From positions 157,312-221,311 of the forward strand of contig CAWBWI010000005.1 in assembly GCA_963792585.1 (NCBI GenBank): DNA of 64,000 nucleotides, read 5' to 3'. This document shows positions 21,825 through 29,008 of the stretch, in pieces. Source of the stretch: Candidatus Eiseniibacteriota bacterium (GTDB lineage: Bacteria > Eisenbacteria > RBG-16-71-46 > CAIMUX01 > VGJL01). Each line of letters starts with the position of its first letter. Positions within the stretch are counted from its first letter, which is position 1. The position numbers were made by a program, and so were the translations under genes. The notes under the pieces are model-generated. The model was not told the DNA's origin. It ran no database searches and saw nothing but the letters and a program-made list of their open reading frames with translations.

Positions 21825-22976
21825 TCAGCCGTGCCGTTCCCGCAGGATGTGGGCTGCCTCGACGATGCGACGCATCTTTCCCGTCGCCGTGGCTTCGTCG
21901 TTCACGCAGCGGTCGGCGAAACACCCGAATCCGCAGTCGGGATTCAGGAAGATCGCCTCGGGGGGGTAGAACGCCAAGGCGCGCTCGACCCGCGCGACGA
22001 TTTCGTCGACGGTCTCGATCTCCGCGGTCCTCGGGTTGACGACCCCGAGACCGATCTCCCGATCGCCGAGGGCCGTGCCCACGACCTCGACATCCCCGGC
22101 GCGCGGGGTCGCGTACTCGAGGACGAACTGGCGCACGCGCATCCGATCGAAGGCGGGCAGCAGGCGCGTGTAGTCGCCCGACAACAGGACATCCTCCCGC
22201 CGGCTCCAGTTCCCGCGGCAGACATGGATGCCGATCCGCATCGCGCCGAGCCCCTCGACCACTTTGTTCAGGAGGTCGGCAGCGTAGTCGAGTTCCGAAC
22301 CCGCGTCCCGGCGGGTTGCCAGTGTCGCTCACATGAATGTTCGTCGATCGCATTCCTCCGACATGACGATCTCCGTCAGGACCGGCTCGTCGAACTGGAC
22401 GAAGTCGCACCCAGCCGCCGCGAGATCGGACAGCTCCTCGCGAAGCAGCCGGACGACATCTTCACCCATCTCGGTCTTGTCGGAGTAGACCTTCCCGGAG
22501 AAGGCGCCGACCCACATCGCGCGCGTCAGCAGGTACGGACCCGGCAGGGTCACCTTCACGGGCTTGTCCGTCAGTCCGCGGACGAAACGGAACTCCTCGA
22601 GCGCCAGCGGCTCGCGCCGGGAGAGTCGACCGACGCATGTCGGGTTGCTGATCGCGGAAGCGGGCACGTCGAGGGTCGAGAGCATCTCCTCGAATCCCGA
22701 CTTGTCCTCGACCGTGTCGAGCATCTCGGCCAGCGTCATCAACCTGGCGCCGTTCAGCTTCTCGGAGACGAATGAATAGAAGTTGTCCCTGCGGTGCTCG
22801 CCGTCGACGACGATGTCGACGCCGGCGTCGAGCTGGATCTGAACGGTTCGCCGGACTTCTTCGTCGGCGATCCGCTCGAAGGCCTCGCTCGCGATGCGGC
22901 CCTTGCGCCGGTCCCTCAGTGCGCGCAGGAGTTCCTGCGAGCGCGGCCAGCTTCCTACCTGGGTCACCGTGAACAT
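21825..22976 (-). CDS. Cobalamin-independent methionine synthase II family protein, 383 aa if the in-frame TGA is read as selenocysteine
   Basis: ORFs 22329..22994 and 21825..22262 are in the same frame, separated only by TGA at 22331-22329 (RRTFM*ATLATRRDAGSELDYAADLLNKVVEG). Motifs VGSWPRS, DGEHRR, QFDEP, HVCRGNW, LEYATPRAG, NPDCGF. Confidence 0.85.
22295..22322 (-). promoter_or_regulatory. Candidate bacterial SECIS hairpin in the MetE-like gene
   Basis: mRNA after UGA reads GCGACA-CUG-GC-AACCCGC-CGGGAC-GCGGGUU-CGG: perfect 7-bp upper stem starting 11 nt after UGA, G in loop position 2. Confidence 0.7.
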
Positions 22977-22990
22977 GGTCGGATGTCCTC

Positions 22991-23734
22991 TCACACGATC
23001 GCCAGCTTGAGGTCGAGGTCGACCGCCCGCCTCAGGGTCGAGGCGATCGGCGAGCGGAGAACGGTGCGCTCCCAGGCCTCCCGCACGCGGCCTTCATCCT
23101 CCATGGTCGAAGCGAAGCACTTCACCTCGATCCTCTGGAATGAGGGGTCGCCCTCCTGCAGGCCCAGGTGCGCCAGGACGTTTCCCAGCCGCCCCTTGAT
23201 CGTGATCTCCACGTCATCGATCCCGATGCCGGACCGGGAGCACTCGGTGGCGAAACCGACGGTGAGGTCCCCCGCCAACGCGCCGAGCATCACCTCGACC
23301 GCCGACGGATGCCGGTCCTTCTCCTCGAAGCTCGCCGGCTGCCCGACGTCGAACGAGAAGTTCCTGCAGTAGACGGTGCTCTTCAACGGACCGGTCGCGC
23401 GGACGCGCAGGCGCCACTCGTACTCGCGGGCGCGTTCCTTGTCCTTCTCCAGGGCCCTCTGCTCGTCCGCGGTATTCCCCCCGCGCCGAACGAAGTAGCG
23501 GGCCAGGGGCCCTTCCTTCACCGCGCCGAGGAACTCGTGGCCGACCATCCGGCACCAAGGGGGAAGGTCATCGCCGACGGTCGGCTCATGGCTGCGCATC
23601 TCGAGGACTCCCCCGTCCGGGACCTTGAGCATGTGCTCCCGAATCAGGAGGATCAGCCCGGAGCCGCAGTCGAGCTCTCCGCCGTCGAAGACGTGGTCGG
23701 GTCGGATCGCAGCCGGATCGATGGGTTCGGTCAT
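22991..23734 (-). CDS. TusA-like sulfur carrier fused to an OsmC-like domain
   Basis: N-terminal FDGGELDCGSGL...DLPPWCRMVGHEFLG (TusA/SirA fold). C-terminal PSAVEVMLGALAGDL...RSPIASTL (OsmC fold). Confidence 0.8.
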   Translation of the reverse strand: MTEPIDPAAIRPDHVFDGGELDCGSGLILLIREHMLKVPDGGVLEMRSHEPTVGDDLPPWCRMVGHEFLGAVKEGPLARYFVRRGGNTADEQRALEKDKERAREYEWRLRVRATGPLKSTVYCRNFSFDVGQPASFEEKDRHPSAVEVMLGALAGDLTVGFATECSRSGIGIDDVEITIKGRLGNVLAHLGLQEGDPSFQRIEVKCFASTMEDEGRVREAWERTVLRSPIASTLRRAVDLDLKLAIV

Positions 23735-23737
23735 TTC

Positions 23738-24103
23738 CTAGTACGACACACTCGGCGTGCCGCCGGAGAGGAACTCGACGAGCGCCGCCCCACCCGCGAG
23801 GGTCGCGCCGGGGATCAGCTGATCCTCCGTGATCGCCCGCTTCTTCGTGCAGGGCGTGCAGACGAGGATCTTGCCGCCGCCGGCAATGTACTTGTCGACG
23901 AGCTCCTTGAGGGGCGCGAATGGCGCGCCGATCGAGATCTTCTCCGCCTCTCCCTTCACCGCGGCCCAGACGCCGTCGGTGCTGAGAAAGATCATCGTAT
24001 CCTTCTCGCTACCCAGAGCCGCGTTGGCGACGACGAAACCGACCGTCGCCTTGTCGCCGTCCTCGCGGCAGTGGTTGAGCAAGACACAGAACTTCTCCGC
24101 CAT
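23738..24103 (-). CDS. DsrE/DsrF-like family protein
   Basis: KATVGFVVANAAL, IFLSTDGV, GGKILVCTPCTKKR. Confidence 0.85.
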   Translation of the reverse strand: MAEKFCVLLNHCREDGDKATVGFVVANAALGSEKDTMIFLSTDGVWAAVKGEAEKISIGAPFAPLKELVDKYIAGGGKILVCTPCTKKRAITEDQLIPGATLAGGAALVEFLSGGTPSVSY

Positions 24104-24104
24104 A

Positions 24105-24353
24105 CTAATCGCTCCTCTCTTTCACCTTCACGAGGTAGTAGGGGTGCTTTGCTTCGATCAGCCGGTGCCCCGTCATGCGGCACCATGCCGGCATCTCCAC
24201 AGGCGCCCCCTCGTCGTGCGCTGTCACGAGGACGAACGTTCCGCCCTCCTGTTTCCGAAAATGCATGCGCAGATCGATCAGGATCTCACCGCAGCCGGTG
24301 CCTTTCCCATCGAACTCCGAGTCATGCTTCCAGCCCGCGGGCGGACCGTCCAT
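24105..24353 (-). CDS. TusA/SirA-family sulfurtransferase
   Basis: 82-aa MDGPPAGWKHDSEFDGKGTGCGEILIDL...EMPAWCRMTGHRL. GGGAGG RBS. Confidence 0.8.
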   Translation of the reverse strand: MDGPPAGWKHDSEFDGKGTGCGEILIDLRMHFRKQEGGTFVLVTAHDEGAPVEMPAWCRMTGHRLIEAKHPYYLVKVKERSD

Positions 24354-24560
24354 CGTGCCAGCCTCCCAGCCCGCCTGGGATTCGAGCCCCCGGCGGACAT
24401 GGGCTCGATCGTAGCACCTGCCTTCTCCATTCTGTGTCGCATCTTGCCTGTGCCGCATCTTGCTGCCTCGAGGCTCGCCCGCGTGATAGAATTGGTCGGA
24501 TTGTTGTGGTCTGACCTCGTGCGCGGCCGCGCACGGCGCACGGAGGTGTGCTTGAGACGA

Positions 24561-26690
24561 ATGCTCCTCGTCTGCCTTCTGCTCCTCCCCGCGAGGACGA
24601 ACGCCATCACCCTCCGGGAAGCCTTCGAGCGGGCGGGCCCGGCGGATGGCTACGACAAGTACGTCGTCCTCGAACCGGGAGTGACCTACACGGGCGGACT
24701 CCTGATCGGCCCGATCTTCAGCCCGATCGCCTATGGGCTCGAAGGAGAAGAGGGGAAGGACGTACGGATCGTCGGGAACGGAGCAGTCCTCGATCTGCGG
24801 GGTGGACAGATCTGCATCTCCTATTGCATGAACCGCCTCGACATCGACGACTGCGTCGTGCTTCGTGGCAACATCCGTTTCCGTGGGATCAATACCGCGG
24901 ACGATGTCGCGCTCCCGACGGGATCGGTCCGGCACGTCACCTTCTACAAGCCGCACGACTACGGAATCCGACTCCAGGGCTCCGGAGACGGGATCACGCT
25001 CGAACGCAATCTGGTCGTCGATGCGGTCGACACCGGCTGGGATTACGTCTACATGACCGGAATCTCAAATAGCTGGTTGCCCACGGGGACCAACATCTCG
25101 TTCAGCGGGCAGTACGGATGGTACGGCACACCCGTGGTGCGCGAGAACTGGTCCTACCAGAGCGACCCGGTTCGCAATGCCGATCCTCTGACCCACTTCT
25201 CGCGGCTCTGCGAATACGGCTGATTCGCGCCGATGCCGTGGCCGGGCGCCACCATGCCTCCGAACAACAACCGTTTCGGGGTGGATCCTCTCCTGCGGAA
25301 TCCGGAGGAAGGCGATTACCGGCCGGAGCCCGGATCACCGGCTGAAGGATACGGCTGTCGGACATTCCCACCCGGCGGGCCGCGGGCCGGCGCGCAAGAG
25401 GCACCCCGACCCACAGCCCTTCCCGCCGCGGGGACGCGGGAAACGGTTCAGGTTTCCGGTCCGATCCATGGCGACACCTCATGGGATGCCGATACGATCG
25501 CGGTCGTCGGCGACGTCACGATCGAAGACGGCGTGACCTTGTGGATTCGGCCGGGCGCATGCGTCGCCTTCCAGGGCGCCTACTCCTTGACCGTGATGGG
25601 TCGGCTCCTTGCGATTGGCACGCCGGAGCAGCGCATTGTCTTTACCGGTGGGGCGGCCATGGCTCGCACGGCGGGATCACGCGAAGGAAGCTGGACGGGG
25701 ATCCGCTTCCCGCGCACCGCGGCGACGAATGACTCGACGCGCCTCGAGTACTGCGTCATCGAGTACGCGCGGGCCCCCGCAGGGGGATCCTTCGGCGGCG
25801 CCCTTTTCTTCGACGGTTTCTCGAAGGCCGCCATCGTGAACTCGATCCTGCGCAGCAACGTGGCGCAGTTCGGCGGCGCCGTCTTCTGCATCCGCCAGGC
25901 ATCTCCGCGTTTCGCCGGCACGCTCATCACCGGCAACTCTGCGGAGGTCACCGCCTCGGCCGTCTACAGCATCGACTCCTATCCCACCTTCGCGAACTGC
26001 ACGATCGTGAACAACCACGACCGGAACGCCGAGCCGAGCTGGCCGACCGCCGCGTTCGTCAACTTCATCGCGAAGGCGCGCACGACCGGCTGCGTGGTTT
26101 GGGACAACCCCTCCTCCTACTTCCTCCCAACCCAGATGATCGAACCGAAGGCACCCTACACCACCTACGACGACATCCAGGGAGGGATCCCGGGCGAGGG
26201 AAACATCGACCTCGATCCGGCCTTCGCCGGAGATGCGGGACATCCCTATCGCCTGAGGGCCGACTCCCCGTGTCGGGACGCGACGGGAAACGCGACCGTT
26301 GGCCTGCCGGACCTCGATCTGGCCGGGTCGCTGCGGGTCGTCGGGGCGGCCGCTGACATCGGAGCCTACGAGTGGATCGACCCGAGCAGCGCGACCGAAA
26401 CCAGCGCGACGCCCCGCTTCGACTTCTCCCCGTGTCCGAATCCGACGGGCGGCGAGTCGGTCCTGCGTTTCACACTGCCCGCGCCGGCGCGTGTCGAAAT
26501 CGGGATCTATGATCTTGAGGGCCGACTCGTGCGCACCCTGCCCGGCGCCGACCTCGCATCGGGATCGCACGTGATGATCTGGGATGGAACGGACGCATCG
26601 GGTCGATCGGCGGCGGCGGGCGTCTACTATGCCCGGCTTTCGGCGGGGGACGCCGCCTCCGCCGTCGCGAAGATCACGATCGCAAGATAG
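24561..26690 (+). CDS. Secreted right-handed beta-helix protein with FlgD-Ig C-terminus, ~709 aa if the in-frame TGA is read as selenocysteine
   Basis: GGAGGT RBS and signal peptide MLLVCLLLLPARTNA (alternative TTG start at 24552). The ORF ending at TGA 25221-25223 and ORF 25233..26690 share a frame (RLCEYG*FAPMPWPG). C-terminal PNP...WDGTDASGRSAAAGVYY. Confidence 0.75.
25233..25255 (+). promoter_or_regulatory. Candidate bacterial SECIS hairpin in the beta-helix gene
   Basis: AUG-CC-GUGGC-CGGGC-GCCAC-CAU, loop 19 nt after UGA. Same CGGG loop start and 2-nt 5' bulge as the hairpin in the MetE-like gene. Confidence 0.6.
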
Positions 26691-26763: not shown

Positions 26764-29008
26764 TCAGTCTGTGGCGCCGCCCACCACGACCTTGCCGGTC
26801 GCCGCAAATCCGGGCCCGCGCAAGCGGAGGAAGTAGGTCCCGGGCGCGGGCCGGGAACCATCCTTGCGCCTCCCGTCCCACGCAACGTCCCACTCCCCGG
26901 CATCGAACATGCGATCCGCGAGGATCGCGACCCGGCGCCCCGCCGCATCGAAGAGCTCGAGCCGCGCGGCACCCGCGTTCGGCGTACGGATCCGAATTCG
27001 GGTCGAGGGACCGACCGGATTCGGCGCGATCGATCCGATCTCGGCGAGGCTCCGCGCCCCGGCGGCCTCCGCCACCCCGCTGACCCCGCGCTCGATCTCG
27101 GCAAGGAACCAGGTCGCGTTCTCGGCGGTGATGTCGACGTGCCCCTGATTGTCGGCCGGGAAGTAGACCGCGTCGAAGGGGGTATGGGTGAGGACGTCGG
27201 GATCGCCGGCGATGTCGTAGAACAGATCGGTCGTATCGAGCGCGAGCGCGCTCACGGTCGGGATGAAGCAGTGGTTGGGATACGGAGCGATGATGTCCCC
27301 GTAGCCGGGATCACTCGCGCCGAGCTGTGCCATCGTGTCCCGCCATCCTCCCGGCGCATTGTCGTAGGGCCGGGTCCCCGCGATCGTGATGGTGACCTCG
27401 TCGGCCGGCAGGAAGATGTAGTCGATCATTCCGTGGAAGATGTCGTGGCTCGACATGTTCGGCACGGCCCAGCAGTTCCCCGTGATGTCGACGAGGAAGC
27501 TCGTGTACTCCCAGCGGATGATCTGGGCGCCGGCGGCGAAGCCCTGGCTCCACCTGGATCCGCTCCCGTTCGCGATCGCGACCTTGCGCGGCGCCGGTCG
27601 GCTAGTCCCCCACGGCGGCGATTTCGGACATCAGGGCCGTCCGCAGCGGATCGGCCTGCCCCCCGCCGCCGGGCGGATCGGTGTGGTGGTAGACGAGCAG
27701 CTGCCGCGCGGCCGGCGTGTCGAGCGACGCGAGGTTCGCCGCCGCCTCGGTCGACTGGTCGGAGAAGAACCAGAGCCAGTACTGGATCCCGAGCGGAATG
27801 TCCGCGCCCGAGTTGCGGCGAGTCGAACGAGATGAAGGTGCGCACCGAGTGGGGAAGGCCGTGCGTCTCCATGTAGGCGAGCGCATAGCGACCGACCAGG
27901 CCCCCCATGCTCGCGCCGACCAGCGCCATGGTGTTCGCTGGACCGACGGCCGCGCGAATCTTGCCCGATCAGCTCGACGGCGACGAAGGCGTTGCGCTGG
28001 ATGTAGTCGCCGCCGTTCGCGAAGTTAAGGACGACCGCGTCGAAGCCGCGACTCCGAAGCTCCTCTACGAGCTGCTCCCGGTTGAGGAGCGCGTAGAGTT
28101 CGTCCCAGTTCATCGTGTTGTCCGGATCGAATCCCTCGATCAGGAGCGACGGGCTTGGTCAGCGTCGGCATGCTGGCCGGAGAGGTAGACGTACGCGTCA
28201 CCCGCGCCGTAGCCGCCGAGATACGGAATCGTCGCCGTGACATGGAGCGTGTCGTTGGGCGCGGGGGCCAATAGCTCGCGAACCTCGAACGGGAAGCCGG
28301 CCTCGAGGGTCGCTCCGTCGTCGAAGAGGGAACGCAGCCGGATCTGTTCCAGTCCCGTCTCCGGATACCGCACGTCCATCCCGCTTCCCATGGAAACGAC
28401 GACGAAGCCGCGCCCATCGTCGAAGTCGATCATCGTCGAGAGCCGCGCGGCCGGGTCGTTGCCGAAGGAAGCGTCGGCATCCACGCGAAACCGCACCTTG
28501 GAGCCGCGGTAGGTGTGGTCCCGCAGGGGCGCCGCGGCGAAGACGCGCCCGGCGACGAAGGGGTTGCCGCTACCCATCTCCAACCGTGACCCCCGGACGA
28601 CGAGGGATCCGTCCTCGAGCGCATCGGGCCGGATCCGGTCGTAGCGGAAGTCCATGACCACGATCGGGATGTTCGCGGGCCCCGACATCTCCTCGCCGCG
28701 CGCGATGATCGAGGGGAGATCCGGCCAGGACGGGGTCGCGATCGACGCCCGTCGGATTCGTCGTAGAGCTGGCGCCACTGTTGAAGGTCCGTCGGCTTCG
28801 AATCCTCCCCGCCGTCGTGTTCCTCGATCCGCGATAGGGGAACCACCCGATCATAGAGGATGCCCGTCGGGACGCTCTCGGCGGGCAGCGCTCCCAGGAT
28901 CTCCCCCAACCGCTCTGTTACGTTCCGTGCAGGCGCCGATCTCACGCCCGACGGAGCAAGAACGACCAGACAGGCGACGACCAGTGTGGCGCGGCCGGCG
29001 TGAGACAT
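26764..29008 (-). CDS. Secreted alpha/beta-hydrolase-domain protein with FlgD-Ig C-terminus (several frameshifts)
   Basis: Signal peptide, VPTGILYDRV, GGDYIQRNA, GASMGGLVGRYAL (GxSxG), HCFIPTVSAL, WDGRRKDG, spread over five or more frame segments. Confidence 0.7.

Follow-up and report, generated by a model that had tools for sequence, protein, structure and literature searches.

Two neighbouring open reading frames on the forward strand of the 64,000-nt window analysed here (the whole stretch of DNA, to which all coordinates refer; its host genome is labelled G000) raise the question whether the TGA at 25221-25223, directly preceded by HFSRLCEYG, ends a gene or is read as an amino acid. A sequence-only reading had proposed that both frames, from 24561 to 26690, encode one exported selenoprotein, with a Cys four residues before the TGA (CxxxU), a CGGG-loop hairpin behind it and a fold not usually linked to redox chemistry.

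Gene layout

Translation confirmed that the two frames are in phase: 24561-26690 (+) is one reading frame with TGA 25221-25223 as the single internal stop, the frame stays open for 488 codons after it, and the proposed Cys codon, TGC at 25209-25211 (+), lies four codons ahead of it. The end of the span holds as well, but the gene probably starts at TTG 24552 rather than at ATG 24561, because a Shine-Dalgarno-like GGAGG (24542-24546, +) lies 5 nt upstream of this TTG and the closest homologues, of 223 aa, start with MRRLLL; ATG 24561 is disfavoured since its A is a C in contigs of close relatives. The whole gene would then cover 24552-26690 (+), with 713 codons, including the internal TGA as Sec, and a terminal TAG. 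The TGA corresponds to residue 224 (U206 of the mature protein) and the TGC to mature C202, the first position of the putative Cys/Sec pair. Contigs of a 90-95% relative occur in two small-share metatranscriptomes and one of them spans the TGA (24967-25288), at a depth of 3 that cannot show transcription.

A single locus proves little, because 32 of 1542 coding-like TGA-ended ORFs of the host genome (2%) have an in-frame coding-like continuation of at least 400 codons and because the hairpin in the window is weak; the case is carried by conservation across genomes. Judged by it, what look like two adjacent genes are almost certainly a single one, and we are highly confident that the internal TGA is decoded as selenocysteine.

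Conservation of the in-frame TGA

A protein database search with the upstream ORF, which has a hydrophobic N-terminus and no family match above cut-off, gave 425 near-length homologues, which means that hundreds of database entries are truncated halves of this gene. All of the best 120 of the 425 stop at either the first or the second pair position of the motif L-C-E-Y-G-(U): 106 end at C-x-x-x, 87 of them with LCEYG, and 14 just before the Cys. At the DNA level, homologues end at a TGA with an in-frame continuation. One homologue with 73% identity has a cluster-mate labelled Candidatus Eisenbacteria. Longer matches were limited to two among 2444 candidates, both full-length with CEYGC (P0124 and P0125/L039). 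These are fused Cys homologues of the kind by which the proposal could be checked, and together with short CGC forms they align a Cys with the UGA. A search with residues 1-200 of the downstream ORF listed 46 matches, the two weakest being unrelated beta-helix proteins; starts are mostly scattered Met, Val or Leu codons in or after the cap that closes the first domain, and there are no signal peptides.

Among distinct long-form loci from several phyla, the second pair position is TGA in 59 and Cys in one, and neither TAA nor TAG was seen at either pair position. Nor was the downstream ORF found out of frame or missing at the motif, signs that would have spoken against the proposal; L125 has a TAA 49 codons past the TGA and is broken or mis-assembled. 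In the host phylum (201 genomes) all 16 long-form matches carry TGA (15 one, 1 two). Forty-seven of 201 Cloacimonadota genomes match, with one or two TGA in 44 of 48 rows; the remaining four rows comprise a single Cys form plus three matches that end ahead of the motif. Among 201 genomes from the phylum of G071, TGA is present in 17 of 19 rows, and Planctomycetota records also carry the TGA-bearing gene. Where these genes truly end, TGA is the stop codon in 6/50 cases and, at AT-rich loci, in 4/40. These figures are counts and not a test, because kin are not independent.

The first pair position is encoded by TGC in 31, TGT in 18 and TGA in 10 of the 59 long-form loci. The latter ten (L023, L041, L045, L049, L051, L053, L122, L130, L133 and L136) have TGA at both positions, 12 nt apart, giving UxxxU. 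On a tree of 56 rows, from which duplicate or partial loci were omitted (L042/L052, on a frameshifted contig, L048, L106, L108, L112, L043 and L022), the first position changed between C and U about seven times, and at least four changes are forced by strong branches.

That the TGA is a true stop, separating two genes or the parts of a conserved split gene or pseudogene, is highly improbable. TGA is indeed the commonest stop of the host (712/1337 long ORFs), 2% of TGA-ended ORFs continue in frame, an ATG follows 9 nt after the TGA and databases list the halves separately; but this ATG is not conserved, TAA or TAG stands at the site in no lineage, including the AT-rich ones in which so few true ends are TGA, a stop would cut the first domain ahead of its cap, and for UxxxU one would have to assume an ORF of 3 codons from one stop to the next. 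Just as remote is a decoding as Trp or another residue, for which one could cite the W at these positions in the database proteins P0184, P0202, P0218, P0222 and P0290 and the real Trp codons of a WGGW sister group described below. However, the main stop codon of the host is TGA, a tRNA-Sec(TCA) is present, and the natural sense codons at both long-form positions are those of Cys. The P0290 cluster also has members cut at CPG, and P0345 runs past its own end with W; this behaviour points to gene callers that used a code with TGA as Trp.

A SECIS-like hairpin behind the TGA

According to the legend of Fig. 2 in PMC13188914, the bSECIS model has a loop of 3-9 nt with a G among its first two nucleotides, located 16-37 nt after the UGA, and an MFE of -7.5 or lower. 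The hairpin GTGGC-CGGGC-GCCAC at 25238-25252 (+) fits this model: its loop, CGGGC, follows the TGA at a distance of 19 nt, with a G at the second position and -9.0 to -10.8 kcal/mol. The proposed CGGG-loop hairpin is thus present and, as a class, conserved, but taken alone the one in the window is no better than chance (z of +1.1 against shuffles; p 0.23 against synonymous resampling).

The class was examined at 78 distinct TGA sites, 59 long and 19 short, after sites sharing the same 45 nt downstream had been removed as duplicates; the site pattern did not catch L026, which is absent from the set. A hairpin was found at 76 of the 78 sites, and the loop starts at 17-20 nt in 59. The summed energy was -521, compared to -323 for the best of 150 synonymous resamplings; 68 of the 78 sites beat their own synonymous mean, 24 at p <= 0.05. 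An energy of -5 kcal/mol was reached at 64% of the TGA sites, but at only 10% of 776 other positions within the genes. At 16 short-form sites the four inner stem pairs are kept in 16/16, with two or three pair types each (C-G/A-U/U-A), so that the stem covaries, changing on both sides, and the GUN loop is GUU, GUG or GUA. At 25 sites of the Cloacimonadota type, the Val/Ala-Ser codons are invariably GTC/GCC-AGT, although these genomes are AT-rich. Two observations count against the hairpin as evidence: in the host order its stem overlaps conserved Trp and Ala codons, and the Cys form L039, in a Sec-positive genome, still has a hairpin (p 0.015, synonymous resampling), which in that case fails to tell Sec from Cys forms. 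From this conservation it is nearly certain that SelB would bind the G-loop hairpin and insert Sec.

As expected for the host of a selenoprotein, SelA, SelB, SelD and tRNA-Sec(TCA) are present in the genome, and the SelD gene itself holds a TGA. SelA and tRNA-Sec are present in all 16 long-form carriers near the host; among 61 genomes of relatives overall, SelA was found in 57 and tRNA-Sec in 58, and since nearly all relatives have them, this co-occurrence does not discriminate. SelA was also found in nine of ten more distant carriers, and the tenth, G065, lacks a SelA match and has SelB and tRNA-Sec. The survey covered these 61 host-side genomes and ten distant carriers. A motif scan for further selenoproteins in the host genome, set too strictly, returned SelD alone, and no paralogue of the gene was found in this genome.

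Predicted fold of domain 1 and position of the pair

AlphaFold was run on the mature 694 residues with Cys in place of Sec. Mean pLDDT was 93 over all 694 residues, 97 for residues 1-256 and 94-98 for residues 201-250, which lie across and after the TGA. The model bears out that the downstream piece begins with the end of the upstream domain: the residues after the TGA are folded into the first beta-helix (pLDDT about 97), and the read-through product folds here as one domain. This domain 1 (24606-25370, +; mature residues 1-255) is predicted to be a short right-handed parallel beta-helix, a three-sheet parallel coil with a capping helix, that spans the TGA and holds the loop with the two chalcogens. 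Its C-terminal cap, NN..G.DP.L.DP..GD.R..PGSPA.GYGC (25263-25370, +), is encoded after the TGA and its C251 is invariant.

The best structural match of domain 1 is the PL6 lyase 7dmk (VIA Z 14.6, rmsd 3.2, 190 aligned), followed by many lyases, AlgE4 and NosD with Z of 11-12.7; NosD 7o0y has Z 11.2 and rmsd 4.1 over 171 aligned residues. All these neighbours are carbohydrate enzymes, adhesins or NosD, with no thiol oxidoreductase among them. Pectate lyases align over model residues 1-255, and it is therefore the read-through that supplies the end of domain 1. Foldseek gave no match to domain 1 at E <= 0.001, PDB sequence searches matched caps and tails only, and no Pfam or NCBIfam family scored above cut-off with this domain.

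Domain 1 has only about six rungs. By DSSP strand register in the predicted model, the last groove strand has C202 at its end, which completes a ladder S72-R93-Q124-S167-C202, and R91 and R122 lie one position over. Out of about 90 rows, 79-90 conserve R91, R93, R122, D118, D146 and H197 (H197 in 86/92). For the catalytic base/acid and the Ca-binding acidic residues that line the groove in the polysaccharide lyases PL1, PL6 and PL9, the candidates by conservation would be R91, R93, R122, D118 and D146.

Domain 2, tail and probable export

The gene begins with a predicted Sec-type signal peptide, MRRMLLVCLLLLPARTNA (24552-24605, +), recognised by inspection and from the N-termini of homologues. 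The downstream part contains NNNRFGVDPLLRNPEEGDYRPEPGSPA and a second beta-helix, domain 2 (25443-26381, +), which is closed at 26247-26372 by a second cap. The sequence-only reading had seen that the cap motif recurs there as GNIDLDPAF...YRLRADSPC; this is a choice-of-anchor Q cap (NF041518 above cut-off). Equally, the FlgD domain that it had placed on the downstream ORF is found as FlgD_ig (PF13860, E 4e-12). The C-terminal domain (26424-26687, +) is T9SS type A-like as well; TIGR04183 reaches 21-22 bits on this tail (cut-off 23) and homologues score at or above the cut-off. With the full model, Foldseek gave Rhombotarget A as best beta-helix match, and the tail matched FlgD and PorU.

A SprA-like gene and eight PorV-family genes above cut-off are present in the host, together with at least 148 FlgD-Ig tails (148 matches among 150 scored of 302 candidates). 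Since the host has all of these, the simplest view of the tail is that of a secretion sorting domain. It is likely that the signal peptide would export the chain and that the FlgD-type tail would route it via the T9SS-like system of the host. The T9SS-like secretome of G000 lies outside Bacteroidota.

A wider superfamily with variable loops

Two features had escaped the sequence-only reading: the first Cys is often also Sec, and the gene belongs to a wider superfamily. Profile searches found short relatives that share the N-terminus and the cap but differ in the loop (DCGU, WCGC, CPGU/CPNU/CFGU, ECSC, GCDC or CETC); one marine cluster has 98 members. On this scaffold the pair occurs as CxU, CxC, CxxU, CxxC, CxxxU, UxxxU and CxxxC, and the tails are FlgD/T9SS, dockerin-like or a short SWG.IK motif. 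P0207/P0348, one cluster with two sequences, is lipoprotein-like and has two rhodanese domains fused to domain 1; the first rhodanese has a Cys loop, and the chain is cut just before the first pair position. A sister group with the same two-beta-helix architecture has WGGW or GGWEG (L135 at G437:C2, L153, P0230, P0249, P0286, P0300 and P0320), and in L135, the one locus checked, WGGW is encoded by real TGG codons. Three tandem short-form paralogues at L073 (G051:C77:69900-73400) comprise one DCGU and two single-Cys YYCV forms. From the WGGW group and these single-Cys paralogues it follows that the scaffold does not need the pair. An ORF with an AhpC/TSA domain lies near L073. NCBI names for members of the family are hypothetical or beta-helix repeat protein.

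The natural series CxC, CxU, CxxU, CxxxC, CxxxU, UxxxU and WGGW on one scaffold offers a direct test of selenium versus sulfur, and how SelB decodes two UGAs could be studied in the natural UxxxU members.

Possible function of the Cys/Sec pair

The reading that we prefer, with a probability of about 0.55, is that the gene encodes a secreted and surface-sorted protein whose Cys/Sec pair would be an extracellular redox or sulfur-transfer site. Taken on its own, the assignment of the pair to thiol/selenol redox or sulfur-transfer chemistry outside the cell is roughly an even bet. It is favoured by the fact that two chalcogens are kept at varying spacing and that Cys and Sec were exchanged repeatedly at the first position, and also by the basic groove, by the rhodanese fusion and by how rare Cys forms are. 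The proposal of an exported selenoprotein in a fold unusual for redox chemistry is supported in this sense; the redox chemistry itself is what we infer. Mechanistically, C202 and U206 could cycle between thiol/selenolate and selenenylsulfide, and UxxxU forms could form a diselenide, which we regard as slightly more probable than not. Because C202 closes the groove ladder beside the conserved R91 and R122 in the predicted register, an anionic substrate such as a sulfur oxyanion, a polysulfide or persulfide, or an acidic polymer may be held next to the pair; domain 2 could be a stalk or a glycan-binding module. Against a redox or sulfur-transfer role it counts that the rhodanese fusion is a single cluster of two sequences, that the structural neighbours include no thiol oxidoreductase, that the scaffold also occurs without the pair and that no gene neighbours are conserved across lineages (33 loci; 461 ORFs).

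It is tempting to go further and to see a widespread and so far unrecognised superfamily of secreted selenoenzymes in which a polysaccharide-lyase beta-helix became a catalyst of redox reactions or sulfur transfer. Its groove, lined by Arg, would feed a tunable Cys/Sec pair, with a catalytic selenenylsulfide, or a diselenide in UxxxU forms made from two UGAs with one hairpin, on the surface of uncultured anaerobes and marine bacteria. This extension is tentative, and we think it rather doubtful in its full form.

Two other functions would leave the protein a selenoprotein. One is extracellular binding of a soft metal (Cu, Hg, Zn, Ni) by the pair, which would make the protein a scavenger or chaperone similar to NosD, a beta-helix copper protein. 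Spacings of CxC, CxU and CxxU are frequent among metal ligands, H197 is conserved as noted above, NosD 7o0y is a structural neighbour and short forms match NosD models weakly; yet a dozen lyases resemble the domain at least as well as NosD does, the sequence match to NosD is far below cut-off, no metal transporter or nos gene recurs near the examined loci, and only two ligands are conserved across the superfamily, which makes this function unlikely. Alternatively, the pair might be a structural selenenylsulfide or diselenide staple in a glycan-binding protein, adhesin or lyase in which the work is left to the arginines. Pectate and alginate lyases, whose grooves use Arg and Lys, have this fold, the protein is exported to where disulfides form, and the WGGW sister group lives without the pair. 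Against such a staple stand the recurrent gain of a second Sec, which would be hard to explain, the rarity of Cys in long forms (1/60 distinct loci) and the about six rungs of domain 1, short for a lyase groove. Moreover, Sec is costly, and in characterised bacterial selenoproteins it is catalytic or metal-binding, as described in PMC13188914 and known generally. We therefore consider a staple improbable, too, and retain the redox or sulfur-transfer site as the preferred function.

Relation to known selenoproteins and beta-helix proteins

As described in the 2026 inventory (PMC13188914), the bacterial selenoproteome is mostly thioredoxin-like. The present family shares with the bacterial selenoproteins that have Cys/Sec pairs (CxxU, UxxC, UxxU; TsoA LULAxC) a UGA aligned to the Cys of homologues, a G-loop hairpin 16-37 nt downstream, a second Cys or Sec nearby and a host with Sec machinery. 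However, Table 1 of this inventory has no CxxxU or UxxxU among its 119 families, the closest being TsoA with UxxxC in reverse order, and contains no beta-helix family; the candidates of Deng et al. 2026 could include the present one. The word "helix" has no occurrence in the available texts of PMC13188914, PMC12013277 and PMC13326102. Literature on selenoproteins or selenocysteine with a parallel beta-helix, FlgD or Omp28 yielded nothing relevant, and none of the selenoprotein models of NCBIfam 20.0 fits the Sec-bearing domain. The families of Haft and Tolstoy (2025) are contained in NCBIfam and Table 1 of the inventory.

The Omp28-related selenoprotein (GOS_C, NF045500) is also extracytoplasmic and shares the dockerin-like tail of the short forms, but the match covers just this tail (22.7 bits against a cut-off of 200), and fold and motif differ. 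Other envelope selenoproteins (ExtKL, the FCYXU TonB receptor, SaoB/SaoX) likewise reside outside the cytoplasm, so that export alone is not new. With the beta-helix proteins (PL6, PL1 and PL9 lyases, AlgE4 and NosD; Z 11-14.6) domain 1 has in common the fold, the N-terminal capping helix, the Asn/Cys ladder and a C-terminal extension; it differs by an identity of only 8-17% and by fewer rungs. To our knowledge, none of these lyases, AlgE4 or NosD has a Cys/Sec pair. The family does not belong to NosD, since short forms only reach 15-20 bits against cut-offs of 300 (TIGR04247) and 23.6 (PF05048) and nosDFY neighbours are absent. Choice-of-anchor Q/T9SS type A cargo (Rhombotarget A fold, PorU CTD) also combines a beta-helix, the choice-of-anchor Q cap and an Ig-like sorting tail, but these are generic modules, and the Sec-bearing domain 1 is in no family above cut-off.

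The selenoprotein family is real and apparently uncatalogued, and the fold, the CxxxU motif and the di-Sec variant appear to be new. It would add a fold class to the bacterial selenoproteome and point to selenium chemistry at the cell surface via a T9SS-like route. Screens for Cys/Sec pairs may have missed it because Cys forms of the long protein are scarce, a limit of such screens that deep-Sep itself states.

Neighbouring genes and further in-frame TGA codons

No gene shared across lineages was found near the locus, only lineage-specific synteny (33 loci; 461 ORFs; Pfam on 16 neighbour ORFs). Downstream, a convergent gene at 26764-28778 (-), exported and alpha/beta-hydrolase-like with a FlgD tail, appears to be broken into several frames by frameshifts or assembly errors. 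Elsewhere in the host genome (G000:C2, -, near oriented 204118), an ORF ends with AVAKGGCG-TGA and has an in-frame continuation of 545 codons; GGCGU resembles a Sec motif, but the following codons score as non-coding.

Upstream lies a divergent operon with genes for TusA, a DsrE-like protein (CxxC) and a TusA-OsmC fusion (22991-24380, -) and a cobalamin-independent methionine synthase-like gene (MetE-like; 21825-22994, -). A link of this operon to the beta-helix gene was considered and rejected, as the two are not linked in relatives. The MetE-like gene has an in-frame TGA at 22329-22331 (RRTFM-U-ATLA). Among 14 loci of this gene, eight have the TGA with a conserved hairpin, CCCGC-CGGGA(C/T)-GCGGG, 18 nt downstream, and six have Cys. 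"Methionine synth" does not occur in the text of PMC13188914, and the gene is likely a second uncatalogued selenoprotein. By motif, the TusA-OsmC gene adjoins the MetE-like gene in all eight TGA loci and in none of the six Cys loci, and the operon looks like a sulfur-relay module.
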